Of a stretch of 64,000 nt of DNA, positions 1,011 to 62,602 are shown piece by piece (the stretch's first letter is position 1; each line of letters starts with the position of its first letter). The position numbers and the translations under genes were made by a program. A model generated the notes under the pieces. The model saw only the letters and a program-made list of their open reading frames with translations. It searched no databases and was not told the DNA's origin. Origin of the DNA: Stegostoma tigrinum (taxonomy: Eukaryota); NCBI RefSeq assembly GCF_030684315.1, contig NC_081401.1, positions 3,668,582 to 3,732,581 of the forward strand. Reading direction: 5' to 3'.

Positions 1011-1901
1011 TCACTGCAGGCACTGAGGAATTATGGTGAAAGGCCATTTAAGCATATTCCTCAGCTGTTCTCTGAATTTACGCTGTGTCACGACGTAGAC
1101 ACAAGTACTAGTGCAGCAACTGCGACATAAAACCCAACTCCCACACGTGACCATCAATCCACACAGATCTTAGTCCTAAATTGTACATCCGCATCCAGAC
1201 AGAATAAATCATTAATGTTGACCATAACAAGATAAAATTGGCGGAAATACCCAGCAATAACATAATGGATTTCCATCGACTCTCCATCTCTGTGTTTTTG
1301 TGAGTTTTCTTCCTGCTGGAAGCACGGAGTCGCCTGCGGGATTTGCTACTCACTAAAATGTGTCTGACTGTGAAGATGTTGAGGAGTAAAATCAAAAGAA
1401 ATGGAACACATGGAGTTAGTAAGTTGTGGAGAAACTCAACTGTCACCCAGACCGGAGAGGACTGAACATTGTCCAATGCAGCACCAAACCAGGGGAAGTT
1501 CATTTGTTGATACTCGCTCGTTAATGCAAAGTACCAGAAAATATTCTTCAAGCTGCTCACTGTAGTGACTGTCCCCAAGGCTATCGCTGCCGTTTTCTCA
1601 CTGCAATATTTACTTTTCAGCTTTTGGCAACAAATGGCCACAAATTGATCAAAGGTGAACGCCACAGTGAACCAAACAGAGCAGTCACTGACTGCACAAA
1701 GCAGGACAGCATGAATGTTGCACAAGGGAAGTTCCAACAGAAAGGAGAACGTTCTTCGGTAAAGGATTGGTAACTGTCTCAAAATCAGATCGAAGATAAT
1801 GACCCGTAGATCTGAAATTGCCATGGCTACCAGATGACATGTGATGCAATTAGAAAGACCACATCTTCTGCGAGAAAGAATCCTAATTGTGAGAAGGTTA
1901 A
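1011..1901 (-). pseudogene. GPR139/GPR142-like class A GPCR, copy 1, coding exon 2 (TM1-TM7), frameshifted in TM7
   Basis: Acceptor ttcccttcctcgcag|TTAAC at 1902/1901. Translation: VNLLTIRILSRRRCGLS..LVAMAISDL..CSVWFTVAFTFDQFVAICCQKLKSKYC..EMESRWKSIMLL. The ORF stops at 1108, but an alternate frame continues SCCTSTCVYVVTQRKFREQLRNMLKWPF to a TGA at 1013-1011. DRF has become DQF, and the expected ECL2 Cys is Gly (PWFG). Confidence 0.9.
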
Positions 1902-2589
1902 CTGCGAGGAAGGGAAGTAAACATGGTTGCATTACAGACAGGAAGAAGTAATAACATCAGTTCAATCGAGGACTGTTTGAACTGCATAATGTTTTGACAC
2001 AGAACAATCATATTGATACATAACAATTGCATTTTAAGAGGCAAATTGCCCTTTATCGTACCAGCCAGTGTTCTTGAAATGGAAAGTAGGAACAGCTACA
2101 AAGGAGTAACTGTTGTCCACAGGGGAACAACAGAATCAAATTTGCAACAGGAGATGATTGGATGAGCAGAATGTTAGAGTGGAAAATCTTCAATCGAGTT
2201 GGTACCAAGTCGAGGCATTCAGACTATCAATCTTTCCATTTAATTAGTATCTTGCGCTTTTATTCTACTTCCCAAAAGTGCAAAACATCACATTTCTCCA
2301 CATTGTTTTCCATCGATCAGCTGTTGTCCCACCCTCCAAACACCTCTTTGTGTCATCGCCAACACTTGCTTCCCCTTTTTTTGACTGTCAGTGAAATCGT
2401 GGCTGATCAGATCACCCTCAGCAACATTTTTCTGTCTTTTCTCACCAGCGCGTGAATTCAAGATGTCAGCCTGAAATACATTGAATGGTACTGCCTCGGC
2501 AGTAAAATGTTGTGAAAGATTCCACAGCAGTCCAGGGACGGGGAATTTTGCAGGGAATATCTCCTCTCCTGACTCCTTAGCAAATCCTG

Positions 2590-3120
2590 TCCTCTGTCTT
2601 ACATGGTCCGAATCAGGAGTGTGATGGAAAACTTTCCATTTGCCTGAAGGGTTTGGAAGTCCAAAACCCTCGAGAACCTTGATATTATTCAGGATAAAGC
2701 AGCCTGCTTGATTGGAACCACATCCACAAAGATTGCCCGTCACCCCCTCAACGTTCATGTTCAATGGCAGCAGTGAGAATTGTCGACATGATGCATTTCA
2801 GGCATTCACAAAGGCTGTAACAATAGAACACCTCCCAAACCCAGGATAATGATCATTGAGAAGGACGAGGGCAGCAGATAGATGGGAATATTGCTCTTTC
2901 CAATTTTCTGTTGAAGCCACTCATCAAACTTTCCTTCACTGTCACTGGATCTAAATCATTGAATTCCCACCCTCAAGGCATTTCAGATCTGACGACAAAA
3001 CACCGAATTCAGAGCTTCAAGAAAACATCTAACCACCACCTACTGAAAGGGTCAACTAGGGACAGGCAACAAATATTGATTTCTCCAGGTACTCCCATAT
3101 CTCACCCGTGAATTAACCAA
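2590..3120 (+). mobile_element. 3' fragment of a second LINE family (CR1/L2-like), degraded
   Basis: Homologous by eye to 10260-10770 ('caggataaagcagcctgcttgattgg', 'agaaggacgagggcagcagata', 'ttccttcactgtcactggatctaaatc'). Confidence 0.65.
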
Positions 3121-3459
3121 CAGTAAATAATTTTTTTTGTTTTAAAGTTTCTTTATCATTTAATGATCAGTTGAATGTCCCATGTGTTATTAACAATGGG
3201 GACTGTCCTTTCAATCACCTCACTGAGGATCCAGATTACGTTAAGAGGACGACATTTCTGTTCTGGAGATATATCAGTTGGGGACATGATGAGTTGTTTT
3301 GTGACAGTTGACAATAATTAAAGGGTGGCCATGAGTCTAGTATTTCTTTCCATGCCTTTATCGAAAGCAAATATCACTACCTAGCCATGTTACTATGAAT
3401 CGCAGAACACTTGTGCCCACATTCAGAAGGTCATGCAATGTGATAACGTAATTTCTGTT

Positions 3460-4030
3460 TTTTTTTGGCTAAAATAATGGGCTATTAATATAGGGAAGCG
3501 TTACTTTCTCTGGACAAGGCATTAGTGAGGCTACAACTTGAGTATCATGTCTAGTATTTTTTTCTCCAAAAAATGAAAGATGTTTGTGATTGCATTGGAA
3601 GAAGTTCAGAGGAGATTCCAGAGATGAAGGCTCGCATGAGGAGATTGCAGGCGTTCTGAACTAAACTGTCCTAAGTTATGGAGAATGACAGCAGTTCTAA
3701 CTGATGTGGAGAAGACGCTGAAACGGTTTGATACATTCACTTCTAGAGGAAGTTCCCCTGGTGGAGCAGGCTGGAACAAGATATCATGGTTTCAGGCTCA
3801 AGGCAAACAAATTTAAAAGAGAGATGAGGAGGAATTGCTTCCCTTAACGGGAATTCGGTGGAATTCACTACCACAGAGTAGGTGGACACCGTTATATTGC
3901 TCAAATATAAGGAGGAGATGGACGTATATTTATGGAGTGATTGGCAATAAAGAATGGGAGGAAAAGTCGAATTGTGACCGAGATGAAGTGTGTGAAGGCG
4001 AAACAGCCTCAACGGTCATTGTGAGTTTCA
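3460..4030 (+). mobile_element. CR1 LINE 3' fragment, degraded
   Basis: Remnants of ALVRLQLEY and LEEVQRRF motifs; many stops. Confidence 0.6.
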
Positions 4031-6719: not shown

Positions 6720-6900
6720 CAGATATTCCAGCGAAACCAATGATAGGATAGTAGTAACTTTCAATTATGTATACCAGGTATTGTATTCGAGACCGCAATG
6801 AGAGGCGATCATAATACGTGGAAATTATGAAAAGGTACCAAGATAAACTCCTGAAATCACTTGTCAATGCCCAGTCTGTTGTTTCCAGATTCTGATCCAT
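6720..6900 (-). pseudogene. GPR139-like copy 1, coding exon 1 (N-terminus and start of TM1)
   Basis: MDQNLETTDW...IESYYYPIIGFAGIS followed by a phase-1 donor G|GTACGT at 6720/6719. It joins exon 2 in frame (TCT G|TT AAC = S-V-N). Intron 1902-6719. Confidence 0.85.
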
Positions 6901-7054
6901 TGAAGGAATATTCCAGTCGATTTTCCCGAGGTTGAGTATTATTCCAATTGATTGTTTCCAGATTCTGATCTGTTGTAGTATCGTTCCAATTGATTGTTAT
7001 CAGATTCTGATCACTTGTTCTGAAGTTCCAACCTCCTGCTCACAGATTCTGATC
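6860..7054 (-). repeat. 42-bp tandem repeat (~5 units) at and upstream of the copy 1 start codon
   Basis: GATCAGAATCTG starts at 7054, 7012, 6970 and 6897 on the - strand. Spacings are 42, 42 and 73; the last equals two units minus 11 nt. Confidence 0.85.
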
Positions 7055-7117: not shown

Positions 7118-7124
7118 TCTCTCT

Positions 7125-12177: not shown

Positions 12178-12529
12178 CTTACACTATGCCTCTACCTTCG
12201 TTTTTGAGTGTCTTACAGTTTGTTCATTCACCCTGCATTCTAAAGTCTGCTAGTTTCGGTATGTATGATTCATATCTCCCTATCATGACATGGGGACTGT
12301 TTATCGAGCATCATGCTAGTTCCTTCTCATAATTTCATTTGAATCTTTTCCTCTAATACTCCGAGTAATGTACATAGGTGAATATATAACTACTTCAGAA
12401 TCTGTATCGACGATTATTTGGCGAATTCTAACTGAAACCTGCAGATAGTACTGTAAAATATTGATTAAATCAGTAGAGATTTACCAATTAAATATTGAGT
12501 GAAATATTCTTGTCTATGTTACAAAAAAA

Positions 12530-22122: not shown

Positions 22123-22300
22123 ATAGATTCCCTACAGTATGGAAACAGGCATTTCGGCCCAACAAGTCCAGACTGAAACACAGAAAATCCCACCCAGATC
22201 CACCCCGCTGTAACTCACGTTATCTACACACCCTTGAACATGGTAGGCAATTTACCAAGGCTAATCGACCTAACCTGCACATCTTTGAACTGTGGGAGGA
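22123..22300 (-). mobile_element. HE1-type SINE 3' half
   Basis: Reverse complement of the SINE tail: 'ccctacagtatggaaacaggc..ggcccaacaagtcca' and 'cctaacctgcacatctttgaactgtgggagg'. Confidence 0.8.
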
Positions 22301-22984
22301 TGGTTATTGGATGCACTGTCCCGAGGACCATATCTCCCAAATAAAAGGAAGAATTCCAAAGAGCAAGAAAAGGAATAAACAAAATGGTGAAGCTGTGTGG
22401 CAGAGTGAGATAACAGAGACATCGTGAATCTACAAGCTGATTATGTTGCTTCGCCTGAACAAAGCTGCTGAAATTTGTGCTGGTAAAAACAAATTACATA
22501 ATTAAAAACACATTTTTACACAAACTGTTTTGAGACCAGTATTGAAAGGAAAGAGATATTCAAAGCTGTGAAGGAAAAGGAGAGACAAGAATTTTAGCAG
22601 TTAACACAATACTTTTAAAATGTTTTTAAAAAAATCCTCCATCAGAGACTGTCCTGAACAATTGAAACCGATGAACGTCAGTTTGAATCAATAGTTGGAG
22701 GAAGGTGAATTAATGGAATTGTTCCTCAATGAGAAGTGGTGAAAATATCTGGAAGTCCAATAAAATATGGAATTTATGGTCATTTGTTGAGAACAATAGT
22801 CTGTATATGTGATAGACGTCTTTCAGTTCACAAGAAGAGGTTACAATAATGAAAGCATATGTACAATCGACATGATAAAGAAACAGATGTGGTATGCAGG
22901 AATCATTTCAGCAAAGATCAGCAGAGCAAAACTTGCAAGTTGCAAACATTACCAGTGTTCCAGCTCAACAAGTGAGAGAAGCAG

Positions 22985-24560
22985 GGAACTCCAGGTGCCG
23001 CAAATGAGGAACAAAAGCAAATTTGTGGGAAAAGCTCAGCGGGTCTGGCAGCATCTGTGAAGGAAAAAACAGAGTTAATGTTTCGTGTCTGGTGGTCCTT
23101 CCTCAAACGTGATGGTGGCTGGGAAACATCAGTTTATATACAGAAAATAGGGAGTCGGGTGGGATTGTGAGTAAATGACAGCATCGAGCCCAAAGAGAGA
23201 GAAAGACAGTTGGACAGACAAAGGAGTTGTTAACAGTCAGGCTGGGAGGGTAGGTAGTCGTTAATGGGGACTGCTAGTGAATATCAATGGGGGTGCGTAA
23301 TAGGAGTATGTGGTAACAAGGCCTGGTGTCGGGGGTTGAGGGGCTGGGACTTGGGGAGATAAGGCCGTGAAATTATTGAACTCAATATTGAGTCTGGTGA
23401 GCTGTCGGGTCCTCAAGCAGAAAATAAAGTGTTGTTCCTACAGCTTGCGTTGGGCTTCAGTGGAAACCTGTAGCAAGCCAGAGACAGAGATGTTGGCAGG
23501 GAGCAGGGGGTACATTGAAATGACAGGCAACGGGTAGTTCAGGGACGTTTTGGCGAGCAGAAGGCTAAGTCTAGAAGGCTGCAGGGTTCCCAACGGAAAA
23601 ATGAGCTGCTGCTATTTCAGGCAGTACTAAGCTTTGCTGGAGCACTGCAACAAATCTGAAGAAGACCTACTGGCCAGAGCATACGGTGGTGGTGTTGAAG
23701 TAGCAAGTAGCAGAAAGTTCGGGGTCAGTTTTTGTACACGTAACCTAGGTGTTCTGAAAGCCATCACCCTGTGTGCACTTTTTTTCCAAAATTTAGAGGA
23801 AAACACGTTCTGAGTACAGTTTCACTGGGAAGGTATGTCTGGGGCCTTGAAGAGCGAAGAGGGAGGATGTACACATGACACCTTCTGCAGATGTGACATT
23901 TACTGCAATTGCACGGACAGTTGCTGTGAGGCTGTTGGGACGTGTTGGGAGTGAAGCAGGAATGGACAAAGGTGTCTTGGAGGGAGTGGTCATTGCGGAT
24001 GATGGACACGGGTGGGGAGAGGATGATGTGACTAGCTGTGGCATACCAGTAGAGATGGCGAAAATGTGGGCTGATGATCACTTGAATATAGATACTGTTG
24101 GGAAGTAGCTGACGGTAAAAGCGACAGTAAAGTTGTTATGGGGGGTGCAAGTTGGGGCGAAGGGAGGGATAAAAGCTGAAGAAAGCTGAGGGCCCTGACA
24201 ACTGCAGTCCTGTAAAATCCTCAATGGAGGACGCAGGTGTACATTTTGGATGCCCCTTTAGCGAAGTCCACATTATCAAAACAGAAATTGCAGAGGCAGA
24301 CAAGCTGGCAGAATGGAAAGTATGGGAATCAGTTGGTTTGTAACAGATGTCCACGGGAAGCTTCTGTCCAGAAACAGAGATGGTGAGCAAGAAAAGCGAC
24401 GGCGAGAAGTTAATAGTGAAAGTGAGAGTGGAAAAGAGCACATCTTTGTCCTTAAGAAAGTGAAATGAGTTAGAATTGTCGTCTTTCAGAGTGAGAGCAA
24501 GCTCAGCCAGGGTAATGAGGATGGTGGTGAATGGGGATGAGAGCTCTCTGAAACCATCCT
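22985..24560 (-). mobile_element. Degraded Penelope-like element (family 2) fragments
   Basis: Minus-strand DICYKPTDSH, FRHL..SHI..RNDHSLQDTFVHS and CNCSKCHIC, plus a pseudo-LTR at 22985-23110. Paralog at 57540-59190. Confidence 0.75.
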
Positions 24561-26181
24561 GATGAACGGTACCTCAGGTTTCATTGAAAATTCTGGCAGA
24601 GAAGTTTGCAATGGTGAACATACTCACTTTGAATGCCATATTTTGGAAAAACAAGCAGTGGTAACATGAATAATGGAGATGAATCAGCCAGGAAAATGAA
24701 GAAGAGATGCAAACACAGCAGCACTGGAAGAGAAATGTCTGACTAAAAGAGTGTGGGATCAATAAGATTTGCAAACAAATATTATTTTCTCCTAATTGTG
24801 GAATAATGTAAAGTTGGGCTAAAATGTAACGATGTGACATTAGTTGAGACAGATTTTATTCCAGCATTTCAAAGATGCAGTCACAAGTTGTTTTCTTCTG
24901 TAATAAAGGAGATGTCCAAGAGACAAAAAATGTGATTATGGATGGAATAATGAAATATAAAGCAGATAGGTAAAGAATTCGTGCAGCTGGCTAAATGTCG
25001 ATAGATGAGGTAGTGGTATTTGTGATGTGAAAAAATGTAGTACTTTTAGAATTGAATGAAGCAGCCAATGCCCTTTTGGCATTATAATACAATGAATGAT
25101 ATCACACGATCATCGATGAGATTCTTCTGATAATCTATCCAAACAAACAAGCAATGAGCTGACATCAACTTTGGTAAAAGTAGGCCATGTGAAGACTTCA
25201 CTACAGCCATGGCCTATTCTGTGGAAGAGAATGTGTCAAAGGGAGAGAGACACACATTCATAAAACTGAATAATTAGAGAAAAGCTGTAGAGTTGACAGC
25301 ATTATTTGAAAAGTTATAATATCTAGTAATTCCCTGCATTTAGTAAATTATTAAACATGTTCTGAACAGCTGCATTGGACAGGTAAAGTGATAACTAAGA
25401 TTGGGACGCACTGATGCTAAAGAAAAATGCATGTCAAGTTAAAATGATACATTCATTTCCCCATTTATATTGATTGCAACCTTTTAGCCCCTGACCAATT
25501 ATTCGAGGTGATGAGTCACTGTGCACCGGAAGCACCCAGTTGACTGTGATTGTCTTGCACAAAAATACATCAGACAGAAGGATCAGTGAAGATATACAAA
25601 ATGATGCTGATGCAGAAGAGAAGACGATATAATCCAAAGAACAGCTGCCTGAAACTAAGTGTTCTGGGGAACATTTAGACGAGTTTGCCCTAGTGAACAC
25701 AGAGATATGAAAAGTTTGTGAGGTCCGAGAAAGAACTGCCACAAATGTTCTGTGACCAAAGCATGGAATCCTGAAAGATGCAAGGAATGGAAGAGCATAG
25801 ATATCGCAGTTCGATTTGTCATGAAGCAGATTATAGGTACATAATAAAGTATCAGAAGCATTTGGGGCCGTGGAGGTGAGACACACACAGCGACAGTTTG
25901 ATTCACATTGGAACAAAATACACCCATTGCCACTTCAGTCGAAATATACGAGATAATCCTTCATTATTTTTTTCTCTCATTGCTCTAGATCTACTGTTTC
26001 AGTCAAACAAAAAAACAACTACCTCACGATGTTCGTTAAATGAATGTGAATAGTGTGAGTGATGTAACTAACTAATTCCCTGAAGGTTTGGTGCATTAAT
26101 AAATGTAGACTGCTTTCCATGGCTTGGACTTGGCTAATCAGAGTGTTTCAGCTCGACAGAAACCGTTCACTCTCACACAAA

Positions 26182-26251
26182 ATGAAGAAGGCTGCAAATT
26201 TGCTCGTGTAAGAGATTTACTACCCGATACTGGCATTGGTGGCTCTTCCTG
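26182..26251 (+). pseudogene. GPR139-like copy 2, coding exon 1 (nonsense codon)
   Basis: MKKAANLLV*EIYYPILALVALP followed by a phase-1 donor G|GTGAGC. TAA at 26209-26211 where the paralog has AAA. Confidence 0.9.
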
Positions 26252-26431
26252 GTGAGCCAATTTAGTTATTTTATTTATCTTTGTCAATTTATTCAGAAAT
26301 GTTTTACACACCTCTGTAGCAGGTGGATGTGTTGAGGATTTCACAGTCGAGGAGCAGGAACGATACCACTGCATCACAAGGGGACTGAATGAGGTATTAT
26401 CATCGCTTTGTGCTTACCCATGTGTCAGCAT

Positions 26432-27153
26432 TAGAACATAGAACATAGAACATAGAACAGTACAGCACAGAACAGGCCCTTCAGCCCACAATGTTGTGCC
26501 GACCATTGATCCTCATGTATGCACCCTCAAATTTCTGTGACCATATACATGTCCAGCAGTCTCTTAAATGACCCCAATGACCTTGCTTCCACAACTGCTG
26601 CTGCCAACACATTCCATGCTCTCACAACTCTCTGCGTAAAGAACCTGCCTCTGACATCCCCTCTATACTTTCCACCAACCAGCTTAAAACTATGACCACT
26701 CGTGCTAGCCATTTCTGCCCTGGGAAATAGTCTCTGGTTATCAACTCTATCTATGCCTCTCATTATCTTGTATACCTCAATTAGGTCCCCTCTCCTCCTC
26801 CTTTTCTCCAATGAAAAGAGACCGAGCTCAGTCAACCTCTCTTCATAAGATAAGCCCTCCAGTCCAGGCAGCACCCTGGTAAACCTCCTCTGAACCCTCT
26901 CCAAAGCATCCACATCTTTCCTATAATAGGGCGACCAGAACTGGACGCAGTATTCCAAGTGCGGTCTAACCAAAGTTTTACAGAGCTGCAACAAGATCTC
27001 ACGACTCTTAAACTCAATCCCCCTGTTAATGAAAGCCAAAACACCATATGCTTTCTAAACAACCCTGTCCACTTGGGTGGCCATTTTAAGGGATCTATGT
27101 ATCTGCACACCAAGATCCCTCTGTTCCTCCACGCTGCCAAGAATCCTATCCTT
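26432..27153 (-). mobile_element. Young 5'-truncated CR1 LINE inserted antisense in the copy 2 intron
   Basis: Nearly identical to 54361-55076, with a (GTTCTAT)n tail. Absent from the paralogous site at ~61035-61045. Confidence 0.96.
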
Positions 27154-27239
27154 GTCCCTGGTTATTCACACATTTGGTCAAGTAACCGATTTCTTCCACG
27201 TCAAAGTTTCATACTTAATGTTGAGAGCTCGCTGATCAA

Positions 27240-27560
27240 TGGTCACACGGTGGTTAGCATTGCTGCCTCACATTGAAAGGAACCCAGTTCAAATCCTGCC
27301 TCAGGCCACTGTTTGTGTGGCGTTTGCACCTTTTCAAAGTGCCTGTGTGGGTTTCCTCTGGCTGCCTCGATTTTCATCCAAGGAAAGGAAAAAAAACTTG
27401 CAGGTTCGGTGGATTGGCCTTGCTTAATTGTCCATCGCATCGAGGGATGTGCAGGCTCGGTGGTTCAGCGATGGTAAATGCAGGAATATGGCAAAGGGCA
27501 GGGGAGTGGATCCGGGAAAGTTCGTCTTCAAAAGGTTGATGTGGACCCGACACCGGACGG
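27240..27560 (+). mobile_element. HE1-type SINE (intronic, predates the duplication)
   Basis: tRNA-like head 'cacggtggttagcattgctgcctcaca..gttcaaatcc' and body 'gtgggtttcctctgg'. Paralog at 61130-61460. Confidence 0.85.
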
Positions 27561-27825
27561 AGTCTGTGATTGTATGAACCCTGTGTTCTCATGCCTGCTT
27601 TCATTTCATCTTGCTGGTGTTACAATAAAGTTCCTCAGTGATCCCTTGTATTTGTGGACTCATTGTTATCCCTTATAAACTGACCTCAGTGACAGTTGAC
27701 TAAAGACATTTTGCATATTGCTGATTGAATGAATCTGACTCACATTATCATATGTCAGGCGCTCTCATAATTATTATCTTGAATCAGGCATTGGCACATT
27801 ATTCACTGCTGTTTTTCTCTCACAG

Positions 27826-28721
27826 CAAACTTGGCTACAATTTGGATTATTTCACAAAGAAACTGCGGCCTTTCCAAGTGTGTCACTGTTTACACGTTGG
27901 CCATGGCAACAACAGATCTACTGGTCCTGATAAACAATGTGGTACTCTATTATATCCTCAGTTATCATTTTCCTTGGTCATTCTTGTTCCATACTCCTCT
28001 TTGCAGAGTCATTATATACCTGACTGCTGTCACTCCTGATTTATCTGTTTCGTGCGTTGTCTGCTTCACATTTGACCGATTTGTATTGATCTGCTGCCAG
28101 AAGATCCAAACCAAGTATTGCACCAGAAGAACTGCAATCAAGCTGGTGATAACCATCGCTGTTGTGATTGTCGTGAAGGACATATCAGTATTGTTTGCTT
28201 ATGAACCTGAACAAATTATAAACAAAGTGCAGTGGGGCTGCTGATCATTAGAAGCATATTTTTTTTCATCTTCTGCTGGTACAGGTTATGTCTAGTTTTA
28301 CAGCGCTTGTGTCGTTTGGATTCCCTTTTCTCTGATTATCTTATGCAATTCATTAATTATCAAATGTATTCTACTGGCTAATAGAACCCGCACTGGACTT
28401 CGGAGCTGCAAGAGTGGGAATGAAAGCGACTCAGAAATTGAGAACCGCAGAAAGTCCATCATTTTATTATTCTCCATAACAGTAAGTTTCCTTTTGCTCT
28501 GGTTGCCAGTTGCCGTGGCTTTAGGCATTACCAAACTGACAGACACCATTTATTACCGAGGGAAGTTCACTGACGCTGAAATTATTGCCAGGGAATTGGT
28601 AGATATCTTGAGGTGTTTCCGTTTTTTTCTAAACCCTTGTTTCTATGCAGCGACCCAGAGCAAATGCAGAGCTGAGCTGAAAAATATGGCAAAATATCAA
28701 TGGATTTTATTCTGGAGATAG
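27826..28721 (+). pseudogene. GPR139-like copy 2, coding exon 2 (two nonsense codons)
   Basis: Acceptor tttctctcacag|CAAAC. One frame reads ANLATIWIISQRNCGLSKC..AMATTDLL..FTFDRFVLICCQK..ENRRKSIILL..FLNPCFYAATQSK. Stops: TGA at 28242 (paralog CGA) and TAG at 28293 (paralog TGG). Confidence 0.93.
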
Positions 28722-28889
28722 GTTCGAGAGAAGTCTGCAAAATAGCTTCGGCCAAGCAAATAGTTCTGCTCGACAAACTTTTATTTACTCGTCTGTCTTT
28801 ATCAGAAAATATACTCGTTGCTGTTAAAAAGGCACACAATTCATTTCTCGGTTGATATGTTTTGGATTTCCTGTAGCACCTTTGATGTG

Positions 28890-29026
28890 AGTTCCAAAGA
28901 AGGGTCAGCGGACCAGAAATGTTATCTCTGATTTCACTTCACAGATGATGCCAAACCTGCTGAGCTTTTCCAGCAGAATTAAGTGTTTGTTTCTGATTTA
29001 CTGCATCCGCGATTCTTTCAGTTTTG
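28890..29026 (+). mobile_element. Short PLE family-2 terminal element (decayed hammerhead at its 5' edge)
   Basis: Starts agttccaaagaagggtcagcggaccagaaatgtt and is flanked by acctttgatgtg / acctttgattgt. Paralog at 62750-62886. Confidence 0.75.
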
Positions 29027-29539
29027 ACCTTTGATTGTCGGTACAATTATCTGTTTTCCTGATTCCCTGCTGAGTGTAGAAAACCTACTCCAGGAAATAT
29101 GATCCATCACGCATTCAGAGATGTAAAATGACCTGACAATATGGAATTGACCATCCATATGAAAAACAGATACTTCCATTGCAGCCATCGAGATCGAAGT
29201 GTTCTGTTTTGAAACATCAATCAAGTTTCATTCAGTACAAAGCAATGGAGTGGTCTGTCCACATGTCTTGCTCATTCTCATGACACTTAATCAGAATATT
29301 GTACGGACTGGACATGTTACAGAAGAGAGGTCATCAATGATAAAAAATAATGATCTGATTCTTCCCACACGACTGATGCCCAGTGGGTGAATCCATCCAC
29401 ACCCAGTCCATTGATGTCACACCTCAGTTCCAGTTCCCAGAGAAGAGGAGGAGAAGGGGAGAAAAGTTTAAATAGCCCTTTCCTCGCTTTCACCTGTGAT
29501 GATACAAACTCTCCGTTCACGTTGCCCTCCCACCTATTT

Positions 29540-29970
29540 TCCCGCCCACACTGAACACGCTCTGTTTCTTTCTTTCTCTCTTGTCTCCTCCTCCAAGATG
29601 CCTTTCATTTCCTCACTATTGTTCGCAGTTTTTCAATACCCGTTTCTTTTTCACACTCTCCCACCCGCATTCTCTCACTACCAGCAGTTTCTCTGCATTC
29701 TGAATGATTTCATTTTCTCCATATCTCTCCTCTCCCTGGCCCATTGTCTCTCTTCTTTCATCCTCTCCCACACTTGATCATTCTTCTGTCATTCTCTCTC
29801 CCTCTTTCTCTCTGTTACTCTTTCTCGCACTCTCATTCCTTCTTTTGCACCTTTTCCCCTATCATTTCTTCTTTCCCTTCCTTTCCATGCTCAATTCTCG
29901 AAGCTCTCATTTTCTCTGTCTCCATATCTCCCCGTCTGCTTCCCCCATCCCTTCCTCTTTCTATCACTAA
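29540..29970. repeat. Pyrimidine (CT)-rich low-complexity tract
   Basis: Seen directly. Confidence 0.85.
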
Positions 29971-35900: not shown

Positions 35901-37595
35901 TGCCACACTGAACAACAATGGTTTGTTTTTCCATTAGTTGATGGCTCATTCAATGAACACTGCCTATCTTGTTACTGAGGAGGGAGAGTGGCCAAGTGAG
36001 AGATGCAAACTGGCTGGATGAGGGTTTTGTTTTACTTTGCTTTAAACTGACCAGGCATCATGCATTGTAATTCCTAGAGTGAGTGATTGCCAGTATTGGT
36101 GAGAAGGACACAAGGAGTTGTCTGATCCCTACACGCATTGGGTTTGAATATTAGATGTGGGATACAGTGAGAGTGGCAAATGTTGGAGTGAAATTCTTTG
36201 GCAGCTTGTTGATACCATTTGATGTGAAGTGAATTATTTGAAAATGGTCAAACCTTTACATCGGCGCCCTATAATTCTCCAATTGACTAACCTGTGGGTA
36301 AGACTGTTGAACATTGAGCTCAGTGCTACATCCTGGGCTCTCGTGCTGATGTGCTAATCTCAAACATCACACTTACCTGGGATGTGAGCATAATATCACA
36401 AATGTGAGTGGTTCATCTTTCGACAGCAAACACCATTTGATGTGGATGGGTTGCAAGCATCTCAGGTAAAGCATCAATAGGATGATCACTTGGTGACCTC
36501 TCTGGTAGATTGTACTTCATTGCAGCTTCAACAACTTGGTCCCACATCTTCAGGAAATTTCCGACGTATTTTTACAGATGTTGAGGCAGAAGCGTTTTTT
36601 TTTAATTTTTCTTCAATGTCACTGAGTGAAAGCTAAAGCTGCTCGCCGGACATGATGATAATTAGCAGCCAAAGACATCTCATTCGATCACCAATGTGTT
36701 CCCTGTATTTCTTAATAAGGACCGACCTCCTAATGTGCTCTTTCACTGTGTAATAGAGAGTGTTGCATCACTTCCAAAACTGACAGGAACTTGCAGCTCA
36801 CGAAAGAAGGACAGGCTCTATTGGAGCTTGGTACAGGAATGGATCAGAATTTGGGAGCAGCATTTCCTAATGTTACAACTTTGGAAAATGGTTTTCCAAT
36901 AAGCTGAACTACATTTGTGACAATCATAAATGAATGATCTTATAATCGTTGTTCTATTGTTTCTTTCGGATTCTGCAACATTTTCACTATTCTGTTCTGA
37001 CTATTATTGGCGTTCCATATAAAAAGTTTCCAGTCAATGACTGATGCTGGAAAGAACACTTTACTACAAGAAAACACGTGTTGTTTACAGCCCTCTTGTG
37101 CTGGAGTTAGTTTTCTTGGCCACTGTCAGGGAAACGAAATGCACTGATCAACGATAACTGTAACTGTGCTTGCCATGTTCTCTCACCCACATTCTCTGGT
37201 CATTCTGCACTGTAAGTCTCAGTCACCAGATACCAGATCAGCAATCCACCGCCCAAACAAAGTCCTGAACACCTTCAAAGTAACTCATTATGTTTATAAT
37301 GTATCTTGTGATTGATGTCGGCGAGGATCCCGATCACATCCAATCCTCTTCAACCATCCTGCTTCTTTCAGCGATCAGTGGAAAATCATCTCAAGGATTT
37401 AGTGTCCACGTTCAGGATTCCCATAAATTTAACACAGATGTTATGTTGGCAGTTGGGTACGCAAACGTCACATCAGCATTCATTTCAAGAGGGCTGAAGA
37501 TGTGCTGAAGAGCAGAGATGGACTGTGTGATGCCTTTAAAATCAAATAAGTAAAAGTTGATCGGTCCGAAGGCAGTGATCTCATAAATTAATTAA

Positions 37596-38242: not shown

Positions 38243-38309
38243 ATGCATATTACAGTACGAATTGTCAGGAAAATATATTATACTATCCTTACTGTAATTG
38301 GTTCTACTG
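38243..38309 (+). CDS. Orphan first coding exon of a fourth GPR139-like gene (partner exon not found)
   Basis: MHITVRIVRKIYYTILTVIGST followed by a phase-1 donor G|GTAAGT. Length, IYY.IL motif and phase match exon 1 of copies 2 and 3. Confidence 0.75.
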
Positions 38310-42289: not shown

Positions 42290-42317
42290 CTGATGAGGGG
42301 TGTAGGCCCGAAACGTC
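42290..42317 (+). ncRNA. Hammerhead motif in the 3' pseudo-LTR
   Basis: CTGATGA-GGGGTGTAGGCCC-GAAACGTC. Confidence 0.7.
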
Positions 42318-52872: not shown

Positions 52873-55076
52873 AAGGAGAAGGAGAGGATTAGGCAGAATG
52901 GGAGGATATTTAATTGGGGAAGAGGAATCTATGATGCGATTAGACATGAGTTAGGAAGCATGGGCTGGGAGCAGTTGTTCCATGGTAAGGGAACTATCGA
53001 CATGTGGAGACGGTTTAAGGAACAGTTGTTGGGAGTGATGAGTAAATATGTCCCTCTGAGACAGGCAAGAACGGGTAAGATTAGGGAACCTTGGATGACG
53101 AGAGCGGTGGAGCTTCTAGTGAAAAGGAAGAAGGTAGCTTACATAAGGTGGAGGAAGCTAGGGTCAAGCTCAGCTAGAGAGGATTACATGCAGGCAAGGA
53201 AGGAGCTCAAAAATGGTCTGAGGAGAGCCAGGAGGGGGCACGAGAAAGGCTTGGCAGAAGGAATCCGGGAAAACACAAAGGCATTTTACACTTATGTGAG
53301 GAATAAGAGAATGGTCAAATAAAGAGTAGGGCCGATCAGGGATAGCATAGGGAACTTGTGTGTGGAGCCTGAGGAGGTAGGGGAAGCCCTAAATGAGTTT
53401 TTTGCTTCTGTCTTTACGAAAGAAACAAACTTTGTAGTGAATGAAACCTTTGAAGAGCAGGTGTGCATGCTGGAATGGATAGAGATAGACGAAGCTGATG
53501 TGCTGAAAATTTTGTCAAACATTAAGATTGACAAGTCGCCAGGCCCGGATCAGATTTGTCCTCGGCTGCTTTGGGAAGCGAGAAATGCAATTGCTTCGCC
53601 ACTTGCGAAGATCTTTGCATCCTCGCTTTCCACTGGAGTCGTACCTGAGGACTGGAGAGAGGCAAATGTAATTCCTCTCTTCAAGAAAGGAAATAGGGAA
53701 ATCCCCGGCAATTATAGACCGGTAAGTCTCACGTCTGTCGTCTGCAAGGTGTTAGAAAGGATTCTGAGGGATAAGATTTATGACCATCTGGAAGAGCATG
53801 GCTTGATCAAATACAGTCAACACGGCTTTGTGAGGGGTAGGTCATGCCTTACAAACCTTATTGAGTTTTTTGAGGATGTGACTAGAAAAGTTGATGAGGG
53901 TCGAGCTGTGGATGTGGTGTATATGGACTTCAGTAAGGCATTTGATAAGGTTCCCCATGGTAGGCTCATTCAGAAGGTCAGGAGGAATGGGATACAGGGG
54001 AACTTAGCTGCTTGGATACAGAATTGGCTGGCCAACAGAAGACAGCGAGTGGTAGTAGAAGGAAAATATTCTGCCTGGAAGTCAGTGGTGAGTGGAGTTT
54101 CACAGGGCTCTGTCCTTGGGCCTCTACTGTTTGTAATTTTTATTAATGACTTGGACGAGGGGATTGAAGGATGGGTCAGCAAGTTTGCAGACGACACAAC
54201 GGTCGGAGGTGTCGTTGACAGTGTAGAGGGCTGTTGTAGGCTGCAGCGGGACATTGACAGGATGCAGAGATGGGCTGAGAGGTGGCAGATGGAGTTCAAC
54301 CTGGATAAATGCGAGGTGATGCATTTTGGAAGTTCGAAAATGAAAGCTGAGTACAGGATTAAGGATAGGATTCTTGGCAGCGTGGAGGAACAGAGGGATC
54401 TTGGTGTGCAGATACATAGATCCCTTAAAATGGCCACCCAAGTGGACAGGGTTGTTAAGAAAGCATATGGTGTTTTGGCTTTCATTAACAGGGGGATTGA
54501 GTTTAAGAGTCGTGACATCTTGTTGCAGCTCTATAAAACTTTGGTTAGACCGCACTTGGAATACTGCATCCAGTTCTGGGCGCCCTATTATAGGAAAGAT
54601 GTGGATGCTTTGGAGAGGGTTCAGAGGAGGTTTACCAGGATGCTGCCTGGACTGGAGGGCTTATCTTATGAAGAGAGGTTGACTGAGCTCGGTCTCTTTT
54701 CATTGGAGAAAAGGAGGAGGAGAGGGGACCTAATTGAGGTATACAAGATAATGAGAGGCATAGATAGAGTTGATAGCCAGAGACTATTTCCCAGGGCAGA
54801 AATGGCTAGCACGAGGGGTCATAGTTTTAAGCTGTTTGGAGGAAAGTATAGAGGGGATGTCAGAGGCAGGTTCTTTACGCAGAGAGTTGTGGGAGCATCG
54901 AATGCGTTGCCAGCAGCAGTTGTGGAAGCAAGGTCATTGGGGTCATTTAAGAGACTGCTGGACATGTATATGGTCACAGAAATTTGAGGGTGCATACATG
55001 AGGATCAATGGTCGGCACAACATTGTGGGCTGAAGGGCCTGTTCTGTGCTGTACTGTTCTATGTTCTATGTTCTAT
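52873..55076 (+). mobile_element. Young 5'-truncated CR1 LINE (HER1-like)
   Basis: Continuous ORF2 frame with one stop at 53320-53322. (GTTCTAT)n tail. GTAG on both sides, at 52869-52872 and 55077-55080. Confidence 0.97.
53356..54987 (+). CDS. CR1 ORF2 reverse transcriptase (543-aa open segment of a truncated element)
   Basis: KSPGPD, PEDWREANVIPLFKKG, NYRPVSLTS, QHGF, YMDFSKAFDKVPH, QGSVLGPLLF, KFADD, RPHLEYC. Confidence 0.93.
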   Translation: MCVEPEEVGEALNEFFASVFTKETNFVVNETFEEQVCMLEWIEIDEADVLKILSNIKIDKSPGPDQICPRLLWEARNAIASPLAKIFASSLSTGVVPEDWREANVIPLFKKGNREIPGNYRPVSLTSVVCKVLERILRDKIYDHLEEHGLIKYSQHGFVRGRSCLTNLIEFFEDVTRKVDEGRAVDVVYMDFSKAFDKVPHGRLIQKVRRNGIQGNLAAWIQNWLANRRQRVVVEGKYSAWKSVVSGVSQGSVLGPLLFVIFINDLDEGIEGWVSKFADDTTVGGVVDSVEGCCRLQRDIDRMQRWAERWQMEFNLDKCEVMHFGSSKMKAEYRIKDRILGSVEEQRDLGVQIHRSLKMATQVDRVVKKAYGVLAFINRGIEFKSRDILLQLYKTLVRPHLEYCIQFWAPYYRKDVDALERVQRRFTRMLPGLEGLSYEERLTELGLFSLEKRRRRGDLIEVYKIMRGIDRVDSQRLFPRAEMASTRGHSFKLFGGKYRGDVRGRFFTQRVVGASNALPAAVVEARSLGSFKRLLDMYMVTEI

Positions 55077-56264
55077 GTAGCTGGTCTGATGAGTAAGTTT
55101 GTGGATGATGCAAAGATTGGTGGAGTTACGAATATTGAGGGTGATTGTCATAGGATACAATAGGATATAGATCAGTCGGAGGCATGTGCAGAAAAATGGA
55201 AGATGAAGTTTAATCCAGAGAAATTGGGAGGTGATGCATTTTGGAAGGTCAAGTGCAGATGGAAATTTATGCAGTGAATGTGCAAACCCTTCGGAGTATT
55301 GATATGCAGAGATTTGGATGTGTAGATCTACAGATCAAACAAAGTAGCAGCACAGGTAGACACGGTATTAAAAAAAATGCCTGTGGTATCTTTAACGTCA
55401 AAGGAAGAGATATTACGTTTGAGAGTAGACAAGTGATGCTGCAACTTTACAGGACTTTAGTTAGGCTACACTTGGAATATTGCATGCGGCTCTGTTCACA
55501 ACACTACTCGAAGAATGTTGATCATTTGGAGGTGGTGCAGAAAATGTTTAAAAGGATGTGGACTGACATGGAGGATTTTAGCTATGCAGGAAAATTGGAT
55601 AAATGGCGTGTGTTTACACTAGAAAACAATCAGTTCAGGGGCGACCTGACAGAATTTTACAAGTTTCTGAATGTCATGGATATCGAGTGGAAAAAAATGA
55701 TGTCTTTTCCCAGGGTGTAAGGGTCAATTACTCGGGAACACAGTTTCGAGGCTCAGTGTGTGGCGGGGTGAGTCAGTGGTCGGAGGGGTAGGTGTATATA
55801 AAACAGATGTGCAAGGCCCGTTTATCACGCAAAAGTGACTAGAATGTGCTGCCAGATGCGGTGCTGAAAGCAGGTACAATCGCAGCATTCAAGAGGCACT
55901 TGGACTCTTCACTGCCCCTCACTGTCAACGGCACCACCAAACATGTCCCTAATTCTCACTGATGCCCCTGTAGAGGGTGCAGAGGACAGGAGAGACCCAC
56001 AGTGTGCCCTTCACAACTATCACATCTTTCACTTCTGCAGTGGACAAAACAAGATGCAAAACTTAGAGAGTGATTTGGACATAAACACAAAAATCCCCCC
56101 TGCCAAATAGCTCACATTGACAGTTCTGAAGAGAGCTGTCTCTCCGAGAGTCTCACAGCTGACACATACTTGTTATCTGCAGATGAACGCCTCAGTCAAT
56201 CTCTCTCCATTTACACACACACTCACAGATTCCATACTGTGAAGAACTCAGCCCATCACATTTT

Positions 56265-56480: not shown

Positions 56481-57534
56481 TAATAATGCTTAAGGATCTA
56501 ATTTAATATGAAATTTCAATGTTGCATTCTGACAGTTTTTCACATTTTATTTTATTTGATGAGCTGTTTGAGGAACTATATTATGACCTCAGTGATATAT
56601 CTCCAAATATTACAAAAACAGCCACAAGAAATATCCACAGTATCGATATCACGAGAGCCTCACAGAATCAGTACCACTTTAGGGTCAATTCTATGGTTTG
56701 GGTCAGAAACATTGTGTGAGAAGTGTGCAATTTTGCAAAGTTGTGATATCTGCTGACCACTGTGCAGCCGTCAGTGATCTCGTTGAATCCTTATCTGGTG
56801 ATAATGAGAAGGGCTTTGGTTAAACCCCTGATGGTAGCTGGACGCACTCTCCCGCGGTCCATATCTCACAAAAAATAGGAAGAATTCCAAACAGCAAAAA
56901 GAAGAAATAAACAAAATAACGAAACAGTGTGACTGAGTGAGATAACAGAGGAATTGTGAATCTACAAGCTGATTATATTGCTTTTCCCGATCAAAGCTGC
57001 TGAAATTTGTTCTGTCTCAAAAAAGTGACACAATTACACACATTTTGACACAAAGTGTTTTTAGACCAGTGTTGAAAGGAAGTAGATATTCTAAACTGTG
57101 AGGGGAAAAGAGAGTAAAAAGTCTTAGGAGTAAACACATTCCTTTGAAATATTGAAAAAAAAAATCATCCACCAGGGATTGTCCCGACTAATGGAAACTG
57201 ATGAATGTCAGTTTGAATCATAGAGGAAGGTGAATTAAAGGACATTTTCCTTAAAGAGAAGGCTGGAAAATATCTGGAAGACCAATAAAATATGACATTT
57301 ACGTTCATTTGTCGAGAAAAAACAGTCAATGCATGTGATAGACATATTTCGGTTCATGAGAAGAGCTTCCAATAATGAAAGCGTACATGTGATCAAACTT
57401 GAGAAAGAAGCAGATATGTTCGGCCTGAATCGTTACAGCAAGGATCAGCACAGCAAAACGTGCTCGTTGTCATGATTACCTGTGTTCTAGCTAAACAAGT
57501 GAGAGGAACAATGTCTTTGTCACGTATAAAAACT

Positions 57535-59190
57535 AAAAACTAATAGAACTGCAGATGCTGTAAATTTGGAACAAAAACAAAGTTTCTGTAAAGGCTCAAC
57601 AGGCCTGGCAGCATCTGTGAAGGAGAAAACAGAGTTAATGTTTCTTTTCCGGTGACAGATCCTCAGGACTGAGGATGGCTAAGAAAACTTCAGTTTATGT
57701 GCAGAAAATAGGTAGGTCGCTGGGGGAGGGAGTAAACGATAGGATAGAGCAAAAAGAGAGAGAAAGGCAGGTGGACAGACAAAGGAGTTGATCAGGAACA
57801 GGCTGGGAGGGTAAATAGTTGTCAATGTGGACTGCTAGTGACTAACAACAGTGGGTGTGTAATGGCCGGCTACGTGGGAAGAAGGCCTGGTGTGTGGGGT
57901 TGGGGGGCTCGGAGATGGGAGAGTTTAGGCCCTAAAATTATTGATTTCAGCATTGAGTCGGAAGGGCTGTGGAGTCCCCAGGCGAAAAATGAAACCTTGT
58001 TCCTGCAGCTTGCATTGGGCTTTACTGGAAAACTGGAGCAAGCCAGAGACAGAGATGTTGGCCAGAGAGCAGGGTGCCATTGATGTGACAGGCAACGGGT
58101 AGTTCAGGGTCTTTTTTGCGAGCAGGAGGTGAAGTCTAGATGGCTACAGGGTTCTCAATGGAAAAAAAAAATGAGGCACTGACATTCCGCGAGGGCTAAG
58201 CTTTGCTGGAGCACTGCAACAAATCTGAAGCAGAGCTGTTGGCCAGACAATACTGTGGTGGTGTTGACGTGAGAAGTAGCAGAATGTTCAGGGTCAATTT
58301 TTGGAGACAGAACCGAATTATTATGAAAGCCATCACCCAGTGTGCACATCGTTTCCAAAATTTAGAGGAAACCACGTTCTGAGCACAGGCTCACCAGGAA
58401 GGTATTTCTGGGGCCTTGGAGAGTGAAGAGGGAGGATGTAAACATTACATCTTCTGCAGATGTTACATTTTCCGCAATTGCAGGGAAAGTTGTAGTGAGG
58501 CTGTGGGGATGTGTTGGGAGTGAAGCAGGAATGGACAAAAGTGTCTTGGAGGGAATAGTCATTGTGGATGATGGACACAGGTGGAGAGAGGATGATGTGA
58601 CTAGCTGTGGCATTCCACTAGCGATGGCAAAAATGGAGGCTTATAATCATGTGTATGTAGATACTGTTGGGATGGTAGCAGAGGATAAAAGGGACTCTAT
58701 TATTGTTGTGGGGGGTGCAGGTGGGGGGCAAAGGAGTGACAAAAGCTGAAGAAAGCTGAGGGCCCTGACAACCACAGTCCTGGGGAATCCTCGATTGAGA
58801 AAGAAGGTGTACATTTTGGAGGCACCCTTATCGACGTCCGCATCATCAAAACAGAAATAGCAGAGACAGAGGAGCTGGAATAATGGTAATGAAGTCCTTA
58901 CAGGAAACAGGGCGTGAGAATGTAAAGCCAAGGCAAAAGTAGGGCTCAGTTGGTTTGTAACGGATGTCAGCAGGCACTCTATCTCTCGAAACAGAGATAG
59001 TGAGCAAGAAAAGGGAGGGGTGAAAGGAATTAATGAAAATGAGAGCGGAATGGGGCACTGCTTTGTTCTTAAGAAAGTGAAAAGAGTTAAAAGCGTCGTC
59101 TTTTATGGTGAGAGCACCCTCAGCCAGAGGGATGGGGTAGGTGCTGAATGGGGATATCGAGCACTGTGAAACCATCCGGATGAACCGGTA
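57535..59190 (-). mobile_element. Degraded Penelope-like element (family 2), paralog of 22985-24560
   Basis: DIRYKPTE, ASKMYTFFLNRGFPRTVV, SLQDTFVHS, CNCGKCNIC. Confidence 0.78.
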
Positions 59191-60787
59191 CATCAGGGTT
59201 CATTGATGATTCGGGCAGAGAAGTGTGCAATGGTGAACACAAACAATTTGAATGCCATCTTTTGGAAAAAACGGACAGTGGTAACATGAAAAGCGGAGAT
59301 GAACCAGCCAGGAAAATGAAGGAGATGCAAACACAAGCAGCAGTGGAAGAGAAATATCTGACTGAAAGGGTGTTGCATCGATAGGATTTGTACACACATT
59401 TTATTTTCTCCTGATTGTGGAAGAATGAATCATTGGGGTAAAATTTAAGGATTTCGGATTCGTTCAGAGACATTTTATTCCTGCATTTCAGAGATGCAAT
59501 CACAAGTTGTTGTCTTCTGTAATAAAAGAGATCGTCAAGAGAAAAAAAATCTGATGACAGATGAAATAATGAAAAGTAAATTAGATGGGGAAAGAATTAG
59601 TGCAGCTGGCTAATTAGTTGATAGATGAGGTCGTGGTATTTGCGATGCAAGGAAATATAATATTTGTAAAATTGAATGAAGCAGCTGATACCCCATTGGT
59701 ATGATCCTCCAATGAATGATATCACAGGACCATCGATGAGGTTCTTCGTTTAATCTATCCGAACAAACAGGCAATGAGCTAACATCAACTTTGGTAAAAG
59801 TAGGCCATGCAAAGACTTCACGACAGAAGTGGCATATTCTGTGGAATCGAATGCCGCACAGGGAGAAAGAAGCACAATGATAAAACTGAATAACTTCCAG
59901 AAAAGTTGTAAAGTTTACAGCATTGCTTGAAAAGTTAGAATATGTGGTAACTCCCTGCATTTGGTAAGCCATTAAACATATTCTGAAAATCTGCAATACA
60001 CAGGCAAAGTGGTGACTAAGATTGGGAAGCACTGATTACAACGAAAAATGCATGTCAGGTTATCATGGTACAGTCATTTACCCATTTATATTGATTGTAC
60101 ACTTTTAGCCCCGACCAACTATCAGAAGTGATGAGACACTATGCATCTGAACCACCCAGTTGTTTGTTGATTTTCGTGGGCGAAATACACCAGATAGAAG
60201 GATCAATGAAGTTATACAAAACGATAAAGATGCAGAAGAGAAGGCGATATAATTCAAAGAGCAGCTGCCTGAAACTCAGTGCTCGTGGCAACATTGAGAC
60301 CAGTTTGGCCTGGTGAACGTAGAGATATGAAAAGGTTGGTAGGTCCCAGAAAGAACTGTCACAGATGTTCTGAAACTAATTCTCAAAGACACAAGAAATG
60401 GAAGAGCAGAGATATCACAGTTGGATTTGGTGTGAAGCAGATTATAGATACATAATATTCCATCAGAAGCATTTGTGGCCGCGGAGGTCAAACACACTTC
60501 GTGACAGTTTGATTGACATCAGAAGAAAAATTTCCATTGCCAATTCAGTTGAGAGAGACCAGATATTCCTTCACTGATTTTTTTTCTCATTTCTACAGAT
60601 CTGCTGTTTCACTCAAACAAAAAATTACCTAACTATGTTTGTTAAATGACTGTGAATAATGTGAGTGATGTAACTGATTGATTCCCTGAAGGTTTGCTGC
60701 TTAAATAAATGTAGACTTCTTTCTTAGTCTTGGATGTGGCTGATCAGAGTGTTTCAGCTCGACAGAAACCACTCACTCTCACACAAA

Positions 60788-60857
60788 ATGGAGAAGGCTG
60801 CAATTTTGCTCGTGAAAGAGATTTACTACCCCATACTTGCATTGGTTGCTCTTCCTG
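60788..60857 (+). pseudogene. GPR139-like copy 3, coding exon 1 (intact)
   Basis: MEKAAILLVKEIYYPILALVALP followed by G|GTGAGT. Differs from copy 2 exon 1 at 6 of 70 nt. Confidence 0.9.
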
Positions 60858-61129
60858 GTGAGTCGATTTAGTTTTAAACCGAATTATCTCAATCAACTTA
60901 TTCAGAAATGTTTTACACACCTCTGTAGCAGGTGGATTTGATCAGGATTTCTCAGTTGAGGTTCAGCTACAATGCCAATGCCTCACAAGACGGCCTAATG
61001 AGGCATTATCATCTAAATGTGTTGATCCCAATGTCACTACTGTCCCTGGTTCTTCGCACGTTGAGTCAAATCACCGATTTCTTCCATGTCAACGTTTCAT
61101 AACTTATTTTGAAAGCTAGCTGACCAATG

Positions 61130-61460
61130 GGAGCTCAGTGGTTGGCACTGCTGCCTCGCCGTGAAAGGAATCCGATCGAAATCCTGCCTCATGCCACTGA
61201 TGGTGTAGAGTTTGCACATTACCTCCGTGCCTGTGTGGGTTTCCTCTGGCTGCTTCGATTTCCAACCATGGAAAGAAAAAATAAACTTGCAGGTGAGGTG
61301 GATTGGTCACGCTTAATTGTCCATAGTGTCTAGGGATGTGCAGGCTCGGTGGTTTAGCTATGGTAAATGCAGGGTTACGGCAAAGGGCAGGGGAGTGGAT
61401 CTGGGCAAGATGGTCACTGGAGTGTTGGTGTGGACAAGATGCTGGATGGAGTCTGTGATT
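61130..61460 (+). mobile_element. HE1-type SINE (intronic)
   Basis: 'gctcagtggttggcactgctgcctc', 'gagtttgcacatt', 'aggtggattggtcacgc'. Paralog of 27240-27560. Confidence 0.85.
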
Positions 61461-61710
61461 ATATTAACGTTGCATTCTAATATCTGATTTCATTTCATCT
61501 TGCTGGTGTTACAATAAAGTCCCTCAGTGATCCCTTGTATCTGTGAGCTCATTGTTATCACTTTTCAACTGATCTCAGTGACAGTTGACTAAAAAAACAT
61601 TTCGCAGACTTCTGATTGAATGAAACTGACTCGGATTATCGTATTATTCATGATTATTATCCTGAATCAGGCATTGGTACATTATTCACTGTTTTTTTTT
61701 TCTCTCATAG

Positions 61711-62602
61711 CAAACTTGGCTACAATTTGTATTATTTCACAAAGAAAATGCGGCCTTTCCAAGTGTGTCACTGTTTACATGGTGACCATGGCAACAACAG
61801 ATCTACTGGCCCTGATCAACAATGTAGTACTCTATTACATCTTCAGTTATCATTTTCCTTGGTCATTCATGTCCCTTACTCCTCTTTGCAGAGTCAACAG
61901 TCAGTGACTGCTGTCACTCCTGATTTATCTGTTTGGTGCGTTGTCTGCTTCACATTTGACTGATTTGTCCTGATCTGCTGCCAGAAGATCCAAGCAAAGT
62001 ATTGTTCCAGAAGAACTGCAATCAAACCGGTATTAACTATCACGTTTGTGATTGTTCTGATGGAAATACCTGTATTGTATGCTTATGAACCTGAACAAAT
62101 TATAAACAAAGTGCAGTGGGGCTGCCGATCAAGAGAAGCGTTTTTCTCATCTTCTGCAGGCACAGGATATGTCTGGTTTCACAGCGCCTGTGTCGTTTGG
62201 ATACCCTTTTCTCTGATTGTCTTGTGCAATTCATTAATTATCAAATGTATCCTACTGGCAAATAGAATCCACACTGGGCTTTGGAGCTGCCAGGGCGGGA
62301 ATGAATGTGACTCAGAAATGGAGAACCGCAGAAAATCCATCATTTTATTATTCTCCATAACAGTAAGTTTCTTTTTGCTCTGGTTACCACTTTCCATGGC
62401 GTTCGGCATTACCAAACTGACAGGCACCAATTATTACCAAGGAAAGATCACAGACCCTGACTTGATCGCCATGGAATCGGCAGAAATGTTGACATATTTT
62501 AGCTGCTTTCTAAACCCTTGTATTCATGCAGCGACTCAGAGTAAATTCAGAGCGGAGCTGATAAAAATGGCCAAATGTCAATGGATTATATTCTGGAGAT
62601 AG
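61711..62602 (+). pseudogene. GPR139-like copy 3, coding exon 2 (frameshift and nonsense codon)
   Basis: Acceptor ttctctcatag|CAAAC. ANLATICIISQRKCGLSKCVTVYMVTMATTDLL. Net 1-nt deletion at ~61897-61905. DRF has become D*F (TGA at 61961-61963). The frame is then open to ..FLNPCIHAATQSKFRAEL..WR*. Confidence 0.93.

Follow-up and report, generated by a model that had tools for sequence, protein, structure and literature searches.

Broken members of a very large GPR139-related receptor family of cartilaginous fishes in a 64-kb stretch of the Stegostoma tigrinum genome

Receptors of the GPR139/GPR142 type form a G-protein coupled receptor (GPCR) supergroup with the protostome FMRFamide, MIP and proctolin receptors (PMC8557429), and the ligands described for the supergroup are peptides and aromatic amino acids (PMC8557429, PMC12208981). 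GPR139 itself has two exons, and its amino-acid pocket is formed by E108, F109, H187, W241, R244 and N271 (PMC7318219). The names GPR210A/B were given to GPR139/142-related orphan subtypes of fish and coelacanth (Rinne et al. 2019, PMC6504862), in a paper of small gene sets, in which the word 'shark' is absent. Here we describe a 64,000-nt stretch of the Stegostoma tigrinum genome (contig NC_081401.1, positions 3,668,582 to 3,732,581, hereafter the window), in which six-frame translation and splice-site inspection identified three two-exon class A GPCR genes (copies A, B and C) and two orphan first exons, every gene being broken. They are pseudogene relics of a very large GPCR family of cartilaginous fishes, the intact members of which would form a ligand-diversified chemosensory repertoire, a reading to which we give about even weight. 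Such a family would resemble the V2R/OlfC, OR, TAAR, ORA and MRGPR families in its tandem clusters, its many pseudogenes and its birth-and-death evolution, but these belong to a receptor lineage unrelated to the shark family, whose sensory role is putative. Indeed, a large share of pseudogenes is a hallmark of olfactory families (PMC10116579).

Copy A lies on the reverse strand, with an open first exon at 6720..6900 (start codon at 6900, phase-1 GT donor, 74.8 bits by an exon-1 profile) and a second exon at 1011..1901 that runs from the end of transmembrane helix 1 (TM1) to helix 8. Copies B and C lie on the forward strand, the first with exons at 26182..26251 and 27826..28721, the second with an open first exon at 60788..60857 and a second exon at 61711..62602. 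The introns (4818, 1574 and 853 nt in A, B and C, respectively) are all in phase 1 and interrupt TM1 just before N1.50. The second exons matched Pfam 7tm_1 above its cut-off (in three of the four exon-2 pieces) and reached 294–360 bits by a profile of the family, while shuffled-window controls gave nothing at or above 5 bits for both the exon-1 and the family profiles. Identity is 32% between copy A and either of B and C, and 78% between B and C; copy A belongs to subfamily I and the other two to subfamily II. An earlier note on this DNA had proposed four first exons ending at 6720 (reverse strand), 26251, 38309 and 60857 with a phase-1 GT donor, three matching seven-transmembrane second exons, no intact gene and a separate subfamily for copy A, and all of this was recovered as proposed, except that the E.RRKSI signature assigned to copy A reads ESRWKSI.

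None of the three genes in the window is alive. In copy A, the reading frame shifts near 1118 in TM7, and the gene shows a DRF motif changed to DQF (R3.50Q), a glycine in place of the cysteine of extracellular loop 2 (ECL2) and N7.49S, and it deviates at 9 of 64 columns that are each at least 90% conserved in the family (one of the nine being the break itself), for a subfamily median of 1 and a maximum of 6. Copy B carries three in-frame stops (TAA at 26209 in its first exon, and 28242 and 28293 in the second), and in copy C there are a TGA at the arginine of DRF (61961) and, near 61900, a gap of one base. The read-level check was made for the copy A break, where one contig of run X1, which may be the assembly's own sample, covers 950–1160 without difference or gap. 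In runs X2 and X4, a contig about 95–97% like copy A near 1667–2100 represents an allele or a close paralog. Summed over conserved coding stretches, contig depth exceeded the depth of unique flanks by a factor of hundreds to thousands, as would be expected with many paralogs, although no copy number can be read from it. A search of sequencing runs for 900–2100 listed no RNA run, a result that is uninformative on expression.

The two orphan first exons lie between copies B and C on the forward strand. The one at 38243..38309 has a start codon and an intact donor (16.6 bits by the exon-1 profile, with similarity beginning near 38183), and no second exon for it, nor any other second-exon relic, was found in the six frames of the window. 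A fifth, decayed first exon had been missed at 36839..37017 (subfamily-I type, with stops and without a donor, 18.6 bits, E 8e-5). Splicing of the two orphans to a shared second exon, that of copy C, was considered and rejected, as they are of subfamily-I type, one lacks a donor, and copy C is itself broken and already equipped with a first exon. Upstream of the copy A start codon, and out of frame with its first exon, 42-nt tandem units of an N-terminal repeat were found at 6931..7054 (reverse strand). First exons of subfamily I carry such short repeats in variable number, so that the length of the N-terminus differs among paralogs; every repeat contains a methionine and a sequon for N-glycosylation, and repeats with N-x-T sequons like those of copy A also occur in P0002, P0088 and P0101.

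Copies B and C allow the history of this locus to be followed. They lie in a direct block duplication of about 7 kb, with 79–84% identity between 22299..29596 (forward, carrying B) and 56830..64000 (forward, carrying C and extending past the window end). Their second exons differ with a nonsynonymous rate (dN) of 0.102 and a synonymous rate (dS) of 0.263 over 292 codons, i.e., a ratio of 0.39 (Fisher p=1e-5), and the flanks give 0.17–0.22; B and C were therefore long under purifying selection before dying, and the history is one of local duplication, purifying selection and later loss. A 725-nt retrotransposon fragment at 26436..27160 (reverse strand), 98% identical to 54354–55078, sits in the copy B intron and is missing from the copy C intron, and it entered after the duplication. 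The best matches of both copies are two Stegostoma models on one contig (83% identity to copy B), and in the tree B pairs weakly with one of them (P0122, 97/49) and C with the other (P0123, 99/78). Since the mis-predicted start of one of these models matches a repeat at 58624–58710 of the window, their contig is likely the orthologous locus.

Beyond the window, the family proved to be very large. At a threshold of E<=1e-10, the search with the second exon of copy A retained 1042 of 2098 candidate clusters (90% identity) and that with copy B 834 of 2115, and among the best 120 of each search, 119 (copy A) and 120 (copy B) came from cartilaginous fishes, mostly under the name 'probable G-protein coupled receptor 139'. 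The family profile, built from 21 diverse members, retrieved 139 representatives at E<=1e-30 from a 50%-identity library; when 30 of the 150 listed representatives were looked up, the 19 that fell inside the clade were all chondrichthyan (sharks, rays, skates and Callorhinchus). Altogether, 19 species were named with family members, including sharks, rays, skates and a chimaera. In the tree, copy A falls inside subfamily I (support 100/97) and B and C inside subfamily II (100/100 with Stegostoma), and these deep subfamilies are common to sharks, rays and skates. The horn shark alone has at least 99 clusters (a hand tally over two hit lists), 95 of them near full length; with a ceiling of 95% core identity, 91 distinct members are left (82 with a ceiling of 90%), and its member count is a lower bound. 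In 11 cartilaginous fish genomes, 6–13 OR, 3–5 TAAR, 2–4 ORA and 8–43 V2R genes were counted per species (PMC10116579), so that the horn shark figure exceeds each of these four olfactory families. Taken with the duplication, selection and loss of B and C, the size of the family bears out the birth-and-death evolution and large expansion suggested earlier; the proposal of an elasmobranch family holds for sharks, rays and skates, but since Callorhinchus has a member, the family is chondrichthyan and not restricted to elasmobranchs.

Several database models (P0358, P0309, P0253, P0302, P0424 and P0130) are chimeric and fuse the seven-transmembrane part of family members to other domains, i.e., uromodulin D8C, integrin alpha-X-like, hemopexin, sodium-channel, TRIM and hexokinase; they likely mark the neighbours of receptor clusters. 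Human GPR139 adjoins UMOD/GP2, which provides a synteny lead. The gene models are already public, and the expansion appears to be an undescribed instance of a lineage-specific GPCR repertoire with a different ancestor. Indeed, no paper describing it was found in the searched literature, outside which subscription journals largely lie, and no match to the family was found in the searched supplements of PMC8455134 (12 of 24 files), PMC10115646 (2 of 3) and PMC13188829 (8 files). The abstract of a catshark chemoreceptor survey covers the classical families only (PMC6368271), and in the available part of a chemoreceptor review GPR139 occurs only in the references (PMC12294341).

The closest relative of the family is a gene of amphibians and sturgeon, also annotated 'probable GPR139' (XP_069092602.1 of Pleurodeles, P0400 of Xenopus tropicalis and P0416 of Acipenser). 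In a 59-row IQ-TREE tree, 42 chondrichthyan and 6 amphibian/sturgeon rows form one branch (100/99), and P0340, P0346, P0369 and P0384 (coelacanth, teleost and caecilian), which are plausibly GPR210A/B and keep R6.51 as GPR139 does, come next outside it. A search with the salamander protein gave 25 matches among 1675 candidates, i.e., 20 amphibian clusters (20 species), 1 sturgeon and 4 chondrichthyan, with no amniote or teleost among those 25, although loss is not proved by such a word-index search. The amphibian/sturgeon gene and the shark family share the DR motif of TM3 followed by a cysteine, the motif at the end of intracellular loop 3, W6.48, N5.58 and the disulfide cysteines. They differ in that the former is found as one cluster per species with an invariant basic pocket (R2.61, K6.51, K6.55 and R7.35), whereas the latter has many members with variable pockets, most of which lack P6.50 (replaced by T in 150, V in 50, L in 31 and M in 18 of 276 proteins). 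In copies B and C, proline occupies position 6.50 as well as 7.50, and the sister proteins (P0330, P0397–P0416) show N1.50S (in amphibians) and D2.50N besides their basic pocket. These comparisons suggest that the family likely expanded from one orphan GPR139-related paralog, seemingly single in amphibians, where the gene is an unnamed conserved orphan receptor, itself worth deorphaning. Nematode srw and gastropod FMRFamide-receptor-like expansions belong to the same supergroup but are independent and confined to protostome lineages. The window itself gave an Srw match below the Pfam cut-off (E 0.0012), and Atlas neighbours show PF10324 Srw in 16–87% of members. The srw chemoreceptors derive from FMRFamide-type receptors. 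In a snail, the supergroup grew to about 450 genes (PMC11589774).

The predicted ligand pocket of the shark family is far more variable than its G-protein face. Among 72 representatives, the mean entropy was 2.62 bits at 27 pocket positions and 0.58 bits at 25 positions of the G-protein face (p=1e-8), as compared with 2.12 bits at 30 neighbouring non-pocket positions (p=0.003 for pocket against neighbours), and the pocket excess persisted for chemical classes (1.39 vs 0.88, p=0.0009). A looser set of 86 gave similar values (2.56 vs 0.57 bits for pocket and G-protein face). The pattern was reversed in 18 amphibian orthologs, with 0.04 bits in the pocket, 0.18 at the G-protein face and 0.43 at the neighbours; strings of 21 pocket positions were distinct in 251 forms among 276 shark proteins and in 4 among the 18 amphibian proteins. 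The predicted structure of an intact member (P0013, predicted local distance difference test score 77.6) shows a seven-transmembrane fold like that of peptide-type class A receptors, and a fold search with this model did not single out GPR139, which ranked 10 among similar peptide receptors. The simplest inference from these entropies would be one fixed ligand in amphibians, many in sharks, and one signalling pathway; a variable pocket with a fixed G-protein face also fits a sensory role.

Under the chemosensory reading, one orphan GPR139-related paralog would have multiplied in cartilaginous fishes, and each subfamily would bind extracellular cues of its own, probably peptides or solutes resembling amino acids because the wider GPR139/FMRFamide-receptor group binds these, while all members would signal through one common G-protein pathway. 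Within an exposed epithelium, be it of the nose, mouth, skin or gut, chemosensory cells would be the most likely site, with a repertoire tuned by tandem duplication and decay, as in the olfactory and V2R families. Several observations weigh against this reading. All family units in the window are dead, and the pocket excess lies between subfamilies and not within horn-shark subfamily I (the group of copy A, 56 proteins), in which pocket entropy lies below that of the neighbouring positions (0.55 vs 0.73 bits, p=0.03); in horn-shark subfamily II the difference is not significant (1.34 vs 1.08, p=0.2), so that recent amplification was not visibly driven by pocket change. The entropy statistics treat columns that are not independent, the amphibian control spans less divergence (mean identity 80% vs 47%), and the pocket and G-protein-face positions come from a generic list for class A receptors, anchored on P0013. 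The chondrichthyan rows alone are monophyletic at only 94/79, in a tree whose rows exclude true GPR139 and GPR142. In addition, studies of the catshark nose indicate V2Rs as the working olfactory receptors (PMC10116579). Note that a top-50 list for catshark brain and nose holds, in the part available, no GPCR of any kind (PMC11979771) and is therefore uninformative on the family.

The same combination of variable pocket and fixed G-protein face would also be predicted for internal sensing, i.e., promiscuous receptors with which leukocytes, mast-like cells or nociceptors would recognise microbial or damage peptides, as the mammalian MRGPRs and formyl-peptide receptors do. According to the whale shark paper (PMC8455134), cartilaginous fishes lack MAS1 and its related receptors, which would leave this role vacant, and the integrin alpha-X-like and TRIM partners of the chimeric models hint at immune-gene neighbourhoods; the partners are mixed, however, with uromodulin-like, hemopexin, sodium-channel and hexokinase domains among them, and show only that clusters lie in many places, so that we regard internal sensing as possible but rather unlikely. 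Otherwise, most of the expansion might have been nearly neutral, with segmental duplications in repeat-rich DNA adding copies around a small number of functional receptors that have few ligands. Such a process would account for the state of the window, where five of five units are broken or orphan, lie among retrotransposons and stem in part from an old block duplication, and for the young horn-shark paralogs without pocket diversification. It agrees poorly with the dN/dS ratio between B and C, with the deep subfamilies common to sharks, rays and skates, and with the 276 near-full-length proteins, in which 64 columns are at least 90% conserved and the median number of departures is 2, and we consider it improbable.

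A function as GPR139/GPR142-type sensors of aromatic amino acids or nutrients, to which the earlier note had tied the genes, is the least probable explanation and, in our opinion, a very improbable one. Human GPR139 is the best sequence match among PDB chains for a family member, for the family profile and for the amphibian sister, and hence the source of the 'probable GPR139' label; it likewise has two exons, and the equivalents of H187 and W241 are kept in 191 and 272 of 276 family proteins. The remaining pocket residues are mostly gone, since E108, F109, R244 and N271 have equivalents in 1, 27, 2 and 7 of the 276, and no protein keeps more than three of the six. The TM3 and ECL2 cysteines, in contrast, are each present in 272 of 276 family proteins and missing from human GPR139 in the alignments. 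Moreover, the family profile scores human GPR139 at 76.6 bits only, as compared with 231.7 for the salamander protein, 208.5 for coelacanth, 197.6 for teleost and 116–127 for five FMRFamide-receptor-like outgroup proteins (one mollusc and four presumed invertebrate), all above GPR139, and the sister gene is a separate amphibian/sturgeon paralog. The little skate has its own 1:1 gpr139 and gpr142 genes (supplement of PMC9605692). Judged from these alignments and scores, the label 'probable GPR139' misleads.

Other repeats of the window were also recorded. An open reverse-transcriptase frame at 53323–54987 (forward strand, 554 aa, Pfam RVT_1 E 6e-35) belongs to an element that we take to be CR1-like, and it was recently active since its 725-nt inverted copy in the intron of B is 98% identical. 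Copies of another repeat at 11436–12176, 15044–16164 and 39856–42383 are 80–93% identical and contain frames with a GIY-YIG-like motif; two of these frames gave no family in Pfam, and the repeat is presumably Penelope-like. Finally, two palindromes were observed, one at 63626–63859 (arms of 117 nt, 89% identity, no spacer) in which a dispersed repeat is present twice, head to head, and one at 12526–12781 (arms of 125 nt, 74% identity, 6-nt spacer).

The value of the dead genes in the window lies in pointing to the family and in exemplifying how duplication, selection and loss followed one another. More speculatively, and with less confidence than for the chemosensory reading as such, cartilaginous fishes may possess a chemoreceptor family of their own that was overlooked under the name 'probable GPR139', with hundreds of members, larger than the OR, TAAR, ORA and V2R families, and derived from the FMRFamide/GPR139 supergroup independently of nematode srw. 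If true, this would explain the keen chemical senses of sharks despite their few classical olfactory genes. Shark genomes were described as showing a 'relative paucity' of GPCRs (whale shark paper, PMC8455134) and a small number of olfactory receptors (PMC10116579), a picture contradicted by a GPCR family that comprises 91 or more distinct proteins in a single shark. Because its basic pocket is invariant, the single ortholog of amphibians could lead to the ancestral ligand through work in Xenopus or axolotl, and the family makes the old question of chemical sensing in sharks directly testable with existing tissue RNA-seq data.

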